A DNA stretch of 64,000 nt, taken from NCBI GenBank assembly GCA_964440795.1, contig CAYTTQ010000005.1:1415-65414 (forward strand), in the 5' to 3' direction. The translations under genes and the position numbers were made by a program. Position 1 is the stretch's first letter. Each line of letters opens with the position of its first letter. This DNA is from an uncultured Desulfobacterales bacterium (GTDB lineage: Bacteria > Desulfobacterota > Desulfobacteria > Desulfobacterales > C00003060). The notes under the pieces were generated by a model, which saw nothing but the letters and a program-made list of their open reading frames with translations, did not search any database and was not told the origin of the DNA. Shown piece after piece: positions 12,941-62,151 of this stretch.

Positions 12941-13055
12941 ATGGCCGTCCTGAACCTATAACCTTTTCAAAAAGTCGATCAAGTTTGGCATGACGATTGG
13001 AAGACTTTTACGACGCCGTCAAAATAGACTTTACGATTTGATCATTTTTGAACCG
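12941..13055 (+). repeat. Copy of a dispersed intergenic repeat family (see 53623, 59631, 59914-59980, 60250)
   Basis: ccgtcctgaacc-tataaccttttcaaAAAGTCGATCAAgtttgg...ttggaagac aligns base-by-base with 59914-59980. TTTTACGACGCCgTCAA matches 60305-60325. Confidence 0.75.
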
Positions 13056-53568: not shown

Positions 53569-53622
53569 ACCTCCTTTTCCAGTCCCACATCACAGGGTGC
53601 ACTCGCAACAAGTCAAGCGGAC

Positions 53623-53710
53623 GGTTTCATCACACCACGGTGGATCAAGTTCGTTGTCGACAGGAAGCCGCGGGGCGGCTTAACCCCGCTTCTTCCGAAG
53701 CCGTTAACGG
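53623..53710 (+). repeat. Copy of the dispersed palindromic intergenic repeat (family R)
   Basis: GGTTTCATCACACCACGGTGGATCAAGTTCGTTGTCGACAGGAAGCCGCGGGGCGGCTTAAC... aligns with the reverse complement of 59631-59710 and with 60250-60331. Contains the hairpin AAGCCGC-ggg-GCGGCTT. Confidence 0.8.
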
Positions 53711-57463: not shown

Positions 57464-57804
57464 GTCGTCTCCCTTGTCATTTTGATCGCGATCGGAACCA
57501 TCCAAGAAGCTTAGGACCATCCGTGAAGCTTCGGATTATGATAAAGCCTGTTGTAGACTTGGGCGGCACTTGTTACCAGTCCCCAACTATCTTGTCAACC
57601 TCCATACACCCCCGGCGGGGATAAACCTCTCCTGATAACCCGCGTGTTATCGGCTGAACCTGCACGGCTTTCCAAGTCTTGCGATCTTTTTTCACACCTT
57701 CCGGGCCACGTCAAGTTCTGCCCGTGTTTCTCGCCGGAAGTCATAATGCTTGCAAGCAAGCTTCATGCCCTGCAAAAAAGAAGGGGACTTTCTTCGACAG
57801 GATG

Positions 57805-57990
57805 CTAAGGGTTCGCGCAAAAATAACTTCACAGAATGGGCGCTCGGATTTGGTTCGGATTTGCCCGATCCGATTGAGCAAAATCGCAGGCATAGCAGGC
57901 TATGTCGAGGTTTTGCGAGTGAGGTATCGGGCAAAGACGGGCGGAAGCCGAGATGGCAAAATGTGAAGTTATTTTTGCGCGAGCCCTAAG
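57805..57990. repeat. 186-bp palindromic element with 29-nt terminal arms pairing at 27 of 29 positions (inner 21 perfect)
   Basis: Left arm CTAAGGGTTCGCGCAAAAATAACTTCACA (57805-57833). Right arm TGTGAAGTTATTTTTGCGCGAGCCCTAAG (57962-57990). The right arm covers the hflX stop codon. Confidence 0.85.
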
Positions 57991-59680
57991 TGCCGCCCAC
58001 ATGGGCTTCAATCTTTTCAAGCAACGGCCCCAGCGACTCTTTGTCTTGTGCCGAGATGGCAATACCTCCCCATCTACGGGAAAGCCGCTGCACGGCCGCA
58101 CCGGCGAGGCGGTCTTTTTTGTTGAACACGCGAACCAACGGTATCCGATCCAGCTGAAGCTCTTCCAATATGCGTTCCACCGATTCGATCTGACTCGGGA
58201 AATCCGGATTGCTCAAATCAATCAAATGAATAAGCACGTCGGCATCGCCGAGTTCCTCCAGGGTGGCCCGAAATGCCGTCACCAATTCCCGGGGCAGCTT
58301 TCGGATGAAACCGACGGTATCGGTGACAATGATCTCGGCATCTTTGGGGAGGCGTTTTCGCCGGGTGGTGGGATCCAAGGTCGCAAATAATTTGCTCTCC
58401 ACCAAAACAGAACTATTGGTCAGTGTGTTGAGCAGGGTCGACTTACCGGCATTCGTATAACCGACGATAGATACAATCGGCAACCCTTTCTTTTTTCTCT
58501 TGGCCCGCCGCTGGTCACGTTGTTTCCGAAAACCTTTTAACAGCTTTTCGAGTTGGGCGATTCGTTTTCGGACCCGACGACGATCCACCTCTAACTTGGT
58601 CTCCCCCGGTCCACGCCCCCCGATACCACCGGTGAGACGAGACATGGCGGTCCCTTTACCGACCAAGCGGGGCAACAGGTACTTGAGCTGGGCCAATTCC
58701 ACCTGAATCTTTCCCTCGCGGCTCTGGGCCCTCTGGGCAAAAATGTCCAGGATGAGCTGGGTGCGATCGATCACCCTCAAGTCCGTACAGTCGGTTATGG
58801 AACGCACCTGAGAGGGATTGAGTTCTTGGTCGAAGATCAACAGATCCGCCCCCTTTTGAAGTGCCAGGATCACCAACTCACTCAGTTTTCCCTTTCCCAT
58901 CAGAAACCGGGGGCTGACCGCCCGCCGTCGCTGAATGACCGTATCCACCGCACCGATCCCGCAGGTTCCGGCCAATTGCCTGAGCTCATGAGTCGAGGCT
59001 TGCGCTTCCTTCCGGGGCCGGGTTGATACGCTTACCACGATGGCACGATCCCCCTGACGCTTGATTTTTTGAACCGGTAATTGGGATGCAAATTCGGATT
59101 CGAGAGACCGGATAAGGCGCTGGCAATCAAGATCCAACTCAGCCGGCCTTACAGGAGACAAGACCTCCCAGTTTTCTTTGCCCGTGTCTTGGGGAAGCAG
59201 ATGGGCCACATGCAGGTTTTCCGGGTTTCCGTCTTCCCCGATCGTGACTGCCGCCATCAGATCCAACCGCAAAAACGTCAGATCCATAAGGTCGTCGTGG
59301 GAAAGGGCCTCGTGTTTCAAATGGGTATGGATACACCGCAAGCCCTTCAGCCGCTGTCCCCCGGTACGATACTTGTCTAAACTCGGAATGACGATTCCTT
59401 GGTAATTGCCGACCACTACGTATACGATCCGACCCCGTCGGTCGATCAGGAGACCGATCTGCCGGCGCATTTCCGCCGACAACCGGCAGATGGTTTTGGT
59501 AAGCTCATAGGAAAGCACGTCTGCTGGGGACGTCTTGCGGCGATACAGGTTTCCTAAACGCCGGACCTGGTTTGCCTTTAACCCCCCCGTATTGCCATAA
59601 ACCCTAATATATTCACCCCTCAACGTTGATGGTGTCGTAAAAAGTCGAGTTAAGCCGCGCCGCTGGCCTCCTGTTGACAA
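57986..59680 (-). CDS. hflX: GTPase HflX (long form with N-terminal extension)
   Basis: G1 VGYTNAGKST, G3 DTVGF, G4 NKKD. HflX N-domain. The start is uncertain (TTG 59680 or TTG 59623), because the first ~17 codons lie inside a repeat-family copy. Confidence 0.88.
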   Translation of the reverse strand: MSTGGQRRGLTRLFTTPSTLRGEYIRVYGNTGGLKANQVRRLGNLYRRKTSPADVLSYELTKTICRLSAEMRRQIGLLIDRRGRIVYVVVGNYQGIVIPSLDKYRTGGQRLKGLRCIHTHLKHEALSHDDLMDLTFLRLDLMAAVTIGEDGNPENLHVAHLLPQDTGKENWEVLSPVRPAELDLDCQRLIRSLESEFASQLPVQKIKRQGDRAIVVSVSTRPRKEAQASTHELRQLAGTCGIGAVDTVIQRRRAVSPRFLMGKGKLSELVILALQKGADLLIFDQELNPSQVRSITDCTDLRVIDRTQLILDIFAQRAQSREGKIQVELAQLKYLLPRLVGKGTAMSRLTGGIGGRGPGETKLEVDRRRVRKRIAQLEKLLKGFRKQRDQRRAKRKKKGLPIVSIVGYTNAGKSTLLNTLTNSSVLVESKLFATLDPTTRRKRLPKDAEIIVTDTVGFIRKLPRELVTAFRATLEELGDADVLIHLIDLSNPDFPSQIESVERILEELQLDRIPLVRVFNKKDRLAGAAVQRLSRRWGGIAISAQDKESLGPLLEKIEAHVGGT

Positions 59681-59710
59681 CGAACTGGATCAACCGTGGT
59701 GTGTCAAACC
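59631..59710 (-). repeat. Copy of dispersed repeat family R (inverted relative to the copy at 60250)
   Basis: The reverse complement reads GGTTTGACACACCACGGTTGATCCAGTTCGTTGTCAACAGGAGGCCAGCGGCGCGGCTTAACTCGACTTTTTACGACACCATCAACGTTG. Confidence 0.8.
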
Positions 59711-59724
59711 GTATTGCCGCGTAA

Positions 59725-59928
59725 GGTTCAGGACGGTCTCAGATTTTAATGCTGCTAAAACTCAGCCGTAAGAGTCCCTAAGTTTCGTTGCGGCCGGGTT
59801 TGTTAAATTGACCATGTGGATTTGCCAAGATATGTGGTGCCTGTTGAATGTCAAAGGAACAACGAAACCAAGGGACTCTAACGGCTTCAAACAGTTAGCC
59901 CCATTAAAATCTGAGACCGTCCTGAACC
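59725..59928. repeat. 204-bp palindromic (MITE-like) element with perfect 27-bp terminal inverted repeats and a second imperfect stem
   Basis: GGTTCAGGACGGTCTCAGATTTTAATG (59725-59751) pairs with CATTAAAATCTGAGACCGTCCTGAACC (59902-59928). The inner arms 59764-59790 and 59860-59886 pair with 3 mismatches. Confidence 0.88.
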
Positions 59929-59962
59929 GATAACGTTTTCATAAAGTCGATCAACTTGGGCT

Positions 59963-60139
59963 AAGTTCGTTGGAAGTCCAATATCTGCGTTGCGCTGCAT
60001 CCCTCGTCACTGCGGCGTACGCTAAGTACGCCTCATTCCTCAGGATTTGCGGCGCCTTGTTGGAGCGAAGCGGAAATCCCGCTATCGGGGATCTTGAACT
60101 TTTTACTTAGCCATCTAAAATCGGACTTCCAACGAAGTT
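59963..60139. repeat. Second inverted-repeat unit (17-nt arms, 14 perfect pairs) enclosing ~140 bp with further small hairpins
   Basis: AAGTTCGTTGGAAGTCC (59963-59979) pairs with GGACTTCCAACGAAGTT (60123-60139). Internal hairpin GGCGTAC-gctaa-GTACGCC. Confidence 0.7.
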
Positions 60140-60249
60140 GACTTGTCTTGTTTGAGAAGGTCGCGCGTTGGGGCCGCTTCAAATTTCAAGGCGCCTAAAA
60201 CTCGGCCCCAACGCTTGTAGGTCAGGTTAGGCCGCCAGGCGTTACCTGA

Positions 60250-60331
60250 CAAGTCGGTGATCAAGTTCGTTACCGATAGGAAGCCGCGGTAGCGGCTTAA
60301 ACCGGCTTTTTACGACGCCATCAACTTTGGG
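60250..60331 (+). repeat. Copy of dispersed repeat family R, immediately 3' of dnaB
   Basis: CAAGTCGGTGATCAAGTTCGTTACCGATAGGAAGCCGCGGTAGCGGCTTAAACCGGCTTTTTACGACGCCATCAACTTTGGG. Hairpin AAGCCGC-ggta-GCGGCTT. Confidence 0.8.
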
Positions 60332-60337
60332 CTTCAC

Positions 60338-61696
60338 TTATTCCACGGCCATGGATCGATTTTCAAAGCGAGTAAACTCTTCCAGGAAGGTCAGATTCAC
60401 GGTTCCTGTGGGCCCGTTTCGTTGCTTCGCCACGGAGAGTTCCGCCAATCTCATTTTGGCCTGATCCACCTGTTTGTTGTATACTTCTTCGCGGTAGACA
60501 AAAATGATTACATCGGCGTCCTGTTCAATGGCACCGGATTCTCTGAGATCCGATAGCACGGGTCGCTTGTTGGTACGGTCTTCCACCTTACGGTTGAGCT
60601 GGGACAACGCTATGACCGGAATAGCAAGTTCTTTGGCCAAGGCCTTTAAGGATCTTGAAATCTCGGATATTTCCAGCTCTCGTCGTTCCGCTGAGGTACG
60701 CCCCTTCATTAATTGCAGGTAATCAATGGCGATTAGACCCAGACCTTTTTCCATCTTCATTCGACGGGCTTTGGCCCGAATCTCCAAGGCGGAAATCGAC
60801 GGCGTGTCATCAATAAACAAGTTCGTGTCGTAAAGAACGCCTGCCGCTCGATTGATTTTTTCCAAATCTTCCTGGTTTAAGAAACCGCCTCGCATTCGCG
60901 TGGAGTCCACCCCCGCTTCCGAGGAGAGCATGCGTAGCGACAACTGTTCCTTGGACATTTCAAGAGAAAAAATGGCGGCGGGCTCACCGGATTCCTGCGC
61001 CGCATTGCGGGCGATATTCAATGCAAGGGCCGTTTTCCCCATGGCGGGTCGACCGGCGATAATAATCAGATCGCCCCGTTGAAACCCGGACGTCTTCTGA
61101 TCCAAGTCCTTAAATCCACTGGAAATTCCCGTAACAAGCGCCTTGTTCTCATATGCCTCCTCGACCGCACGGTAGGTGTCCGTCAATATGTCTTTCAAGG
61201 CATAAAACGACGGTTTGACCTTATTTTCCGAAATTTCGAATATACTGCGTTCCGCAAAGTCCAGGATACCTTCGGTGTCCCCCTTGTCCTCGAAACACCG
61301 GGTGGTAATGGCGGCCGATTTCTCAATGAGCCTCCTGAGAATTGCTTTTTCCTGCACAATTTTCGCATATTGACTGGCATTCACCGCCATGGGCACCACG
61401 TCCACCAAATCCGCCAAATAGGAGGCACCCCCGACAGCCTCCAATTGTCCTTGTTGTTTGAGCAGATTGGTCAGGGTGATCAGGTCGGCGGGCTCGTTGC
61501 GTTCAAACAGGTCCACCATGGCCTTAAAAATCTTCCCGTGGATTTCCCGATAGAAGTCTTGCGGAGACAGGACCTCCAGGACCTCGGGGAGGACTTGATT
61601 GTCAATCAAGACAGCGCTGAGAATCGACTGCTCTGCATCCACGCTGTTGGGGGGGACCTTTTGTAACCAGGAATCCTGTGTCGCCATATTGCCCAT
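60338..61696 (-). CDS. dnaB: Replicative DNA helicase
   Basis: PPNSVDAEQSILSAVL N-terminus, Walker A AGRPAMGKTA, DYLQLM. Start is ATG 61696 (TAATG overlap with rplI) or ATG 61687. The listed 73-aa extension was rejected. Confidence 0.93.
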   Translation of the reverse strand: MGNMATQDSWLQKVPPNSVDAEQSILSAVLIDNQVLPEVLEVLSPQDFYREIHGKIFKAMVDLFERNEPADLITLTNLLKQQGQLEAVGGASYLADLVDVVPMAVNASQYAKIVQEKAILRRLIEKSAAITTRCFEDKGDTEGILDFAERSIFEISENKVKPSFYALKDILTDTYRAVEEAYENKALVTGISSGFKDLDQKTSGFQRGDLIIIAGRPAMGKTALALNIARNAAQESGEPAAIFSLEMSKEQLSLRMLSSEAGVDSTRMRGGFLNQEDLEKINRAAGVLYDTNLFIDDTPSISALEIRAKARRMKMEKGLGLIAIDYLQLMKGRTSAERRELEISEISRSLKALAKELAIPVIALSQLNRKVEDRTNKRPVLSDLRESGAIEQDADVIIFVYREEVYNKQVDQAKMRLAELSVAKQRNGPTGTVNLTFLEEFTRFENRSMAVE

Positions 61697-62151
61697 TACT
61701 CTTCCGGAAGGACTTCCACCGTGATTTCCGGTTTTACCTCCGGATACAGCTGAATGGCAACGGTGTACGATCCGACAGATTTGATCGGTTCGGTGAGCAG
61801 AATCATTTTCTTGTCTACGTCGAGTCCCAATTCTTGTAACTTCGCCTCGATATCTCTGACGCCGACGGAACCATAGAGCCGATCTTCCTCGGAAACTTTG
61901 GCCACAATTTGACACACGGTGCCTTCCACTTGCTTGGCCATCTCTTCCGCCTTTTTTCTATCCTTCATGGCCCGAAGCTCAAGGTGTTTCCACTCTTGTT
62001 CGATCATTTTTCTATTGGTCGGGCTCGCCGGGACCGCTTTTTTTTGGGGAAGGAGGTAGTTTCTCGCATATCCCTTGGCCACCACCACCTCATCTCCGAC
62101 GCTGCCCAACGATTCGACCGCCTCTTTAAGAATTACTTTCATTGTCGTCAC
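61696..62151 (-). CDS. rplI: 50S ribosomal protein L9
   Basis: MKVILKE.V..LG..G..V.V..GYARNYLLP signature. Confidence 0.92.
   Translation of the reverse strand: MTTMKVILKEAVESLGSVGDEVVVAKGYARNYLLPQKKAVPASPTNRKMIEQEWKHLELRAMKDRKKAEEMAKQVEGTVCQIVAKVSEEDRLYGSVGVRDIEAKLQELGLDVDKKMILLTEPIKSVGSYTVAIQLYPEVKPEITVEVLPEE

Follow-up and report, generated by a model that had tools for sequence, protein, structure and literature searches.

Nested non-coding mobile elements very likely fill the long dnaB-hflX spacer of a Desulfobacterales genome

Across the order Desulfobacterales, dnaB and hflX are neighbors, usually with a short spacer; what, then, are the 738 bp (59600-60337) that lie between them in the genome studied here? 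The locus belongs to a stretch of 64,000 nucleotides (contig C5:1415-65414; henceforth the window, to which all coordinates refer) from a Desulfobacterales metagenome-assembled genome (MAG), a short-read assembly of 3.07 Mb in 210 contigs that is 98.7% complete. From the letters of the window alone, an earlier reading (the original prediction) had described the spacer as a mosaic of five palindromic components, devoid of open reading frames (ORFs), in which one element seemed to have been inserted inside another. The analysis presented here indicates that the block at 59628-60322 very likely consists of selfish non-coding mobile DNA, which accumulated in an original spacer of ∼35-40 bp. The pile-up itself is ordinary biology; its unusual part is the core of one of its constituents, a hairpin family termed E2.

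When the block was compared with the whole assembly by BLAST, every base of 59626-60325 was found to have 12-53 further copies in the genome, which is far beyond chance; the flanking coding DNA had none. Its units are therefore dispersed and multi-copy, as had been anticipated, and not unique to this locus. In a genome-wide self-comparison, repeats with at least five copies made up 1.24% of the assembly and formed 338 islands (median 81 bp), the largest of which is the 700-bp dnaB-hflX block. No ORF longer than 49 amino acids is present in the spacer, which agrees with the notion that it holds no gene.

Adjacency of DnaB and HflX is kept across the order. Within the same genus, the gap measures 34 bp in one genome (G009) and 76 bp in a second one (locus L012); in other families it is mostly 55-230 bp, with one gap of 553 bp. 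Because relatives keep dnaB next to hflX, usually with short spacers, the block is an insertion. A further species from this genus (G017) has a gap of 311 bp holding an element of the type called E3 below, in the other orientation, and other congeners carry unrelated repeats or have contig breaks directly after dnaB. The dnaB-hflX spacer is a recurrent landing site.

The anatomy of the block was read from alignments of its genomic copies together with their flanks and from annotating all islands with a module library. All five predicted components were recovered where they had been placed. The unique remnant of the original spacer (59600-59627; repeat depth 0 up to ∼59618) ends with the six nucleotides AACGTT (59622-59627), the left target-site duplication (TSD). 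It is followed, on the plus strand like all modules up to the right TSD, by unit R- (59628-59693; 25-37 genomic copies), which consists of the A-arm terminal inverted repeat (TIR) GATGGTGTCGTAAAAAG (59628-59644), a small GC hairpin, and the inverted B-arm CCTCCTGTTGACAACGAACTGGATCAA. Linker L1 (59694-59724; ∼20 copies) is conserved in the flank alignment and the constant companion of E2a/b on that side. E2a (59725-59928) is an intact, rod-like hairpin of 204 nt scoring 234 bits against covariance model R1; its terminal inverted repeat is perfect over 27 nt and reaches 34 nt at 94%, and a second 27-nt stem (59764-59790 with 59860-59886) pairs at 89%. Linker L2 and the long B-arm GATCAACTTGGGCTAAGTTCGTTGGAAG (59949-59976), together 59929-59976, close a recurrent composite, R-/L1/E2a/L2/arm.

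The center of the block is the E3 core (59977-60125), cargo of a ∼125-bp "X"-family A-arm element occurring at 14 or more genomic loci. Here, it lacks outer A-arms and retains its original right TIR CTTTTTACTTAGCCATC internally (60099-60115); a 20-nt inverted repeat of 90% (59963-59982 with 60120-60139) encloses most of it. The short inverted B-arm CTTCCAACGAAGTTGA and linker L3 (60126-60164) form the left end of an E2d-type composite; each of the five full E2d copies has them conserved on its left side. Next comes E2d' (60165-60214; model R1 match with E = 8.6e-5), an E2d copy with its middle deleted, which over 66 nt shows 100% identity to the left portion of the full E2d on contig C11 and is delimited by the perfect inverted pair GCGTTGGGGCCG/CGGCCCCAACGC (60165-60176 with 60203-60214). 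Linker L4 (60215-60258; at least 24 copies, always between E2c/d and an R unit) contains the hairpin GTCAGGTTAGGCC/GGCGTTACCTGAC, and the hairpin GTCAGGT.../...ACCTGAC was located at 60221-60250. Unit R+ (60259-60322; 42-45 BLAST matches) comprises a B-arm, a GC hairpin, and the inverted A-arm CTTTTTACGACGCCATC (60306-60322). The last segment (60323-60337) consists of the right TSD, AACTTT (60323-60328), and nine nucleotides of unique spacer before the dnaB stop codon, and is marked by a drop in repeat depth. R- and R+ do bracket the block as an inverted pair, with 72-nt arms (59621-59692 with 60258-60329) pairing at 78%.

Thus, three arm-bounded units (R-, the E3 core between B-arms, and R+) are separated by two E2 copies, one intact and one internally deleted. 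Copies of the left composite (59625-59977, R- through the long B-arm) with 86-96% identity are present on at least eight contigs, including C77, C25, C95, C135, C62, C9, and C39, and copies of the right composite (arm/L3/E2d/L4/R+) on at least five; in the block, the two mirror each other around the E3 core. The limits of the spacer itself depend on the start of hflX. Its longest ORF, beginning at TTG 59680, extends into the R- repeat. The product read from ATG 59599, on the other hand, aligns from residue 1-2 onward with at least 10 relatives, which makes ATG 59599 the most likely start and the TTG-59680 extension presumably spurious. Because this alignment begins at ATG 59599, R- is outside the hflX coding sequence, and the spacer starts at 59600. 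Read along the minus strand, rplI comes first, followed by dnaB (60338-61915; Pfam DnaB and DnaB_C), the spacer, and hflX (57986-59599; Pfam GTP-bdg_N, GTP-bdg_M, and MMR_HSR1), dnaB and hflX being co-directional.

What kind of element are the arm-bounded units? The A-arm TIR, GATGRNNTCGTAAAAAG, is found at both ends of the block, of R-AA, of E3, and of other units; within the block, this superfamily is represented by R-, R+, and the E3 unit. A-arm (TTGATGGCGTCGTAAAAAG) and B-arm (TGATCAAGTTCGTTGCCGACAGGAAG) are homologous variants, a 7-nt indel apart, and a given cargo can end in either: E3 cores were seen with A/A and B/A arms and, in the window, with B/B arms. Canonical E3 copies are 152 bp long, with A-arms and TSDs of 6-7 bp, and the E3 family is common to many other genomes. 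Of the 201 genomes sampled from the order, 150 (99 of 125 genera) contained the pattern TGATSRHGTCGTAAAAAG (one mismatch allowed at most), with forward and reverse counts about equal and up to 159 + 158 per genome; the reversed-pattern control gave ∼0. In a scan of one genome per species, the motif was almost restricted to Desulfobacterales, Desulfobulbales, Syntrophales, and unclassified "delta" MAGs, worldwide. The two arms of an inverted A-arm pair are separated by 100-170 bp, and the cargo between them belongs to a few families, among them the ∼125-bp family that includes E3.

An exact TSD of 6 bp (7 bp in seven cases) directly abuts GAT...ATC in 43 of 82 public A-arm pairs; in the 6-bp test, shifting the flanks by 1, 2, or 3 bases left 8, 0, and 0 matches, respectively. 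In the analyzed genome, six of eight informative pairs showed the duplication. The duplicated sites are AT-rich, roughly AANNTT. With TIRs, a TSD of fixed length, small size, no coding capacity, and many copies, the superfamily, which extends across the Desulfobacterota and is defined by a conserved 17-nt terminus and a 6-bp TSD, can on these sequence features be classed as miniature inverted-repeat transposable elements (MITEs). No description of these repeats in Desulfobacterales was found in the literature, where the motif string gave only unrelated matches.

The same test applies to the block as a whole. Its outermost 17-nt A-arm TIRs are flanked by AACGTT and AACTTT, identical at five of six positions, which suggests that the block began as, or moves as, one A-arm element. 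Together with the short spacers of relatives, this also bears on the question of duplicated target and empty sites that the original prediction had raised. That prediction had further pointed to 12941-13024, where the flanks of three of the components seemed to be contiguous. What this locus contains is the right end of an E2 copy, along with a linker and a B-type arm that passes straight into an A-arm; it is indeed a relative of the block, but a degenerate one riddled with deletions, and does not represent a clean empty site. Nesting or juxtaposition of mobile palindromes is well borne out, although not by the 12941 locus as proof by itself. Among the evidence is one paralogous composite in the genome that lacks E2d exactly, leaving the junction CCTAC|GCGCGACC; with the TIRs, the TSDs, and the relatives' short spacers, it upholds the nested-MITE half of the proposed "BIME/nested-MITE behaviour," whereas the 6-bp TSDs speak against the other half, a bacterial interspersed mosaic element (BIME) of repetitive extragenic palindromic (REP) sequences moved by a REP-associated tyrosine transposase (RAYT).

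The units would be mobilized in trans, by one or more DDE-type transposases absent from this assembly. Chimeric junctions always fall at the inner arm end (...AAAAG/...GGAAG), and homologous recombination between A- and B-arms, along with slippage across long palindromes, could have produced both these junctions and the deletion derivatives.

The E2 hairpins behave differently. The genome contains 20 full-length copies in four subfamilies (67-100% identity). The predicted fold of E2a has a free energy of -104 kcal/mol (z = -12 to -14), and among the copies of this genome, 23 of the 60 predicted pairs change on both sides yet stay paired. With model R1, full-length relatives were retrieved from 36 of the 201 genomes sampled from the order, representing 22 of 125 genera, and, elsewhere in the phylum, from two of ∼290 genomes, both of one family. 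An alignment of 39 matches (36 distinct elements, ∼28 genomes) was fitted to the model and hence leans toward structure; in it, 87.9% of cells were paired, as opposed to 53% when shuffled and 31-42% with slid partners. Double changes occurred in 58 of 60 pairs, and the covariation score was 0.71 versus 0.17, a very large margin even for a model-fitted alignment. GC content ranges from 0.31 to 0.67, tracking the host genome, while the unpaired motifs AAACTC, YAAG, GTAA, CTAA, and CTCARACAGTT are fixed. The core comprises four covarying helices around the conserved loops AAACUC / CUCARACAGUU and YAAG / CUAA; mini-versions of ∼87 nt are reduced to the outer stem plus the first internal loop. E2 is structurally constrained.

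The two strands of E2 are not equivalent. On the modeled strand, 104 A.C mismatches were counted versus 35 G.U; A.C was commoner in 26 elements, G.U in seven, and three were tied (p ∼0.002 in our sign test, which ignores shared ancestry). Because A.C outnumbers G.U, it is the complementary strand that carries wobble-compatible changes, and at the window locus, this is the sense strand of dnaB and hflX. The covarying stems, the conserved internal loops, and this asymmetry suggest that E2 acts as a folded single strand, which might be single-stranded DNA (ssDNA) during mobilization or RNA. Orientation of E2 relative to neighboring ORFs was random (13 same versus 12 opposite in co-directional contexts, from crude ORF calls), and no recurrent neighbor gene of E2-like elements was found, only coincidental thiolase and YhhQ paralogues. 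Inspection by eye for sigma-54 boxes, an integration host factor (IHF) site, and a hammerhead-like core in E2 ended in rejection of all three for poor match.

E2 occurs in genomes without any A-arms (G019, G024, G162, and G203) and, therefore, does not depend on the arm superfamily. In G059, the E2 core is located inside a ∼290-bp MITE with the TIR GTAACTTCTCAA and an 8-bp TSD, exact or near-exact (7/8), in seven of nine copies; in other genomes, the hairpin runs on into outer arms of unrelated sequence. E2 would thus ride on different MITE backbones in different genera. A terminus of GTAA... and an 8-bp TSD are features of the IS66 family of insertion sequences (IS), and the G059 carrier shows both; an IS66 transposase was not matched in G059, and the two IS66 genes of the analyzed genome lack such termini. 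A hairpin element bounded by GTAACTTCTCAAAAAGTT/AAGTTTTTGAGAACTTAC, the TIR type of the G059 carrier, was also seen directly after dnaB in another congener of the analyzed genome (G008, locus L015). In a further genome, G110, three dispersed non-coding arrays of 1.1 kb (loci L195, L196, and L197; 83-86% mutual identity) each contain four E2-like hairpins in alternating orientation, arranged as a 545-bp tandem unit of two types. It is conceivable, if at present rather less than probable, that the E2 core is a hitherto undescribed, Desulfobacterales-specific structured nucleic-acid module of ∼200 nt that is functional itself, either as a folded single-strand signal for replication, recombination, or mobilization or as a non-coding RNA, and has repeatedly been captured by unrelated MITE backbones. 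Such repeated capture would explain why the core is conserved and the termini are variable.

The enzyme behind the arm-bounded units was sought at several places. As predicted for the window, no transposase tied to the repeats of the block was found, neither in the spacer nor in the rest of the assembly, although not every ORF of the window was scanned against Pfam. Inverted arm pairs 0.6-5 kb apart, in the analyzed genome and 116 public loci, enclose ordinary genes, and the ORFs adjoining solo A-arms do not form a recurrent family. A partner of the ISDol1 group, for which TSDs of 6-7 bp are known, was considered and led nowhere: the ISNCY and IS66 loci carry no arms, and the ISDol1 literature was uninformative. 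Transposase-like genes are few in this assembly (contigs C158, C174, C146, C65, C15, and C80), and none is associated with the studied repeats. They include two IS66-family transposases, three Y1_Tnp proteins of 214-386 amino acids, and a 502-amino-acid DDE protein beside a 294-amino-acid ORF in a Tn552/Tn5053-like arrangement, the latter ORF being read as a TniB-like ATPase without a domain search.

Three other explanations were weighed against the accumulation of mobile DNA. A BIME-like REP/REPIN cluster, spread and maintained by a RAYT, that is, a Y1/HUH tyrosine transposase acting on single-stranded hairpins, would fit a mosaic that alternates in orientation and has recurrent specific linkers, as in E. 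coli BIMEs, as well as the alternating four-hairpin arrays of G110 and the one-strand wobble asymmetry of E2, which shows no TSD in the analyzed genome; three to five Y1_Tnp proteins are encoded there. However, the 6-bp TSDs of the arm units and the 8-bp TSDs of the E2-like elements in G059 are signatures of DDE and not of HUH enzymes, and the units, 65-300 bp long and moderately AT-rich, do not resemble 20- to 40-nt GC-rich REPs. The suggested search for a cognate RAYT or IS200/IS605-type transposase came back empty, as the five Y1_Tnp matches in the genome have no repeat module within 4 kb. This explanation is, therefore, improbable. The assembly might also be at fault, the 700-bp arrangement being the product of a chimeric join, or of a repeat that was collapsed or expanded, in a short-read MAG. 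The assembly is fragmented, 40 of its 420 contig ends are within 250 bp of a module type from the block, E2a copies are 98-99% identical, and contigs break right after dnaB in several relatives. Yet the dnaB-hflX join agrees with order-wide synteny, the mirror architecture is coherent, with TIR and TSD matching at both outer ends, and the component composites are intact on other contigs, which leaves very little room for an artifact.

A functional structured RNA is the alternative that concerns E2 most directly. Part of the spacer, chiefly E2a, could be a leader or processing element of the dnaB-hflX transcript or a small RNA gene, its mobility being secondary. The very strong covariation and the conserved unpaired motifs over 22 genera argue in this direction, as do the coincidence of the wobble-tolerant strand with the dnaB/hflX sense strand, a promoter-like match in E2a that faces hflX, and the persistence of E2 cores while the outer arms and TIRs vary among genomes. 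On the other hand, each such genome holds at least 20 E2 copies at unrelated loci, orientation to co-directional neighbors is evenly split, and E2 is absent from the orthologous spacer of relatives. Nor did it match a known RNA family: a gathering-threshold Rfam scan of the window returned two tRNAs and nothing else, the region 59500-60450 had no match in Rfam 15 at E ≤ 10, and 20 E2-like loci of other genomes gave only sub-threshold matches to plant miRNA-precursor hairpins. Moreover, gene conversion within an element can keep palindrome arms complementary without selection. That part of the spacer is such an RNA, with mobility as a secondary trait, is unlikely.

The reading of the block as accumulated mobile DNA has difficulties of its own. 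The TSD of the block is imperfect (5/6), and the AT bias of the target makes a chance match non-negligible; we estimate it at ∼0.005, or ∼0.05 if the terminal TT reflects target preference. The recurrent composites end, on one side, at GGAAG, which is not a proper TIR end, and no TSD was seen for them; their spread is, therefore, not explained by simple cut-and-paste transposition. An autonomous element with A-arm TIRs was found neither in the analyzed genome nor in the 116 public loci, an absence weakened by the fragmentation of MAGs, and A-arms are missing at the ISNCY_1, ISNCY_2, and IS66 transposase loci of the analyzed and high-copy genomes. The underlying data are a short-read MAG whose contigs are broken by repeats, and the order given here for near-identical modules is the assembled one. 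As to E2, the A.C/G.U asymmetry could result from strand-biased mutation rather than from selection.

The effect of the block on its host probably lies between neutral and mildly regulatory. Some 700 nt of strong hairpins would part hflX from dnaB and may bring along a promoter-like site facing hflX. In the center of E2a (59827-59854, minus strand), TTGACA and TATCTT, 16 nt apart, match the sigma-70 consensus at 10 of 12 positions and, as a consensus pattern match only, may constitute a putative promoter. Elsewhere in the genome, solo A-arms or the composite GGAAG end were observed to precede start codons by a few to tens of bases (C9:47340, C62:10460, C26:24705, C6:45166, and C77:1791-1820), the genes downstream including lgt, rpsB, and a response regulator with its ATG 8 nt after GGAAG. 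Repeats so close to a start may supply or displace a 5′-UTR or Shine-Dalgarno sequence.

Other repeats of the window deserve mention. A 186-bp palindrome (57804-57996) overlaps the stop codon of hflX and is part of the most abundant repeat family of the genome, which has the TIR TAAGGGYTCGCGCAAAAATAACTTCACA and inverted-pair anchors 148 bp apart; its 86 anchors correspond to at least 43 copies (depth 43-78), many at contig ends. Because the palindrome belongs to this abundant family, MITEs are present at both ends of hflX. Two further islands belong to the repeat families of the block. The island 53621-53702 is an R unit with a degenerate A-arm and with its B-arm and the first L1 bases intact. 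The island 12945-12989, upstream of ispE, is a degenerate remnant of an E2 end, L2, B-arm, and A-arm.

The long dnaB-hflX gap is, in summary, best read as mobile DNA and not as a hidden gene or a dedicated regulator, and the same repeats cause many of the contig breaks in the assembly. Beyond this locus, the A-arm elements are a newly defined MITE superfamily, which three quarters of the Desulfobacterales genomes sampled contain. The pattern of E2, with covarying stems, conserved loops, one strand favored, and interchangeable termini, is the opposite of that of a normal MITE. For this reason, the family is a concrete candidate for a new element, structured RNA or ssDNA, of environmentally important sulfate reducers.

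How do these elements compare with known systems? With MITEs derived from DDE insertion sequences, such as the Correia elements of Neisseria, they share TIRs, short TSDs, a length of 65-300 bp, lack of an ORF, intergenic copies that number in the tens to hundreds, transcripts that form hairpins, and, in some cases, promoters or sites bound by proteins (PMC3184786). They differ in that they have no known parent IS, that a single A-arm TIR type is found on many unrelated cargoes across a whole order, that A- and B-arms are two homologous variants that recombine, and that E2 conserves an internal structured core, whereas ordinary MITEs conserve their termini. The BIMEs and the REP-REPIN-RAYT system of E. 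coli likewise form mosaic clusters of alternating palindromic units with recurrent linkers, are located between genes of one operon, and are inherited within a lineage over long times (PMC3184786). The alternating clusters with linkers are found here as well; a RAYT flanked by its own REPs and TSD-free insertion are not, since the elements make TSDs, their units are far longer than REPs and not GC-rich like them, and the RAYT-like genes of the genome are not flanked by these repeats.

Closer in phylogeny, Geobacter metallireducens and its relatives, a related anaerobic "deltaproteobacterial" lineage, contain numerous intergenic, multicopy, and often palindromic families, some of them shared between genera; their cataloguing relied on BLAST and did not extend to TSDs, TIRs, or covariation (PMC2700814). 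No sequence relationship between those families and the repeats described here was found.

For the conservation pattern of E2, the nearest likeness may lie outside MITEs altogether. Integron attC sites and the end hairpins of IS200/IS605 elements keep their structure and their unpaired bases despite variable sequence, and it is one specific strand that works as folded ssDNA. E2 resembles them in this respect, a likeness to be taken as a lead and not as membership. It is three to four times longer than either and has no linked integrase or TnpA, and at least one genome carries it in a MITE that makes TSDs.

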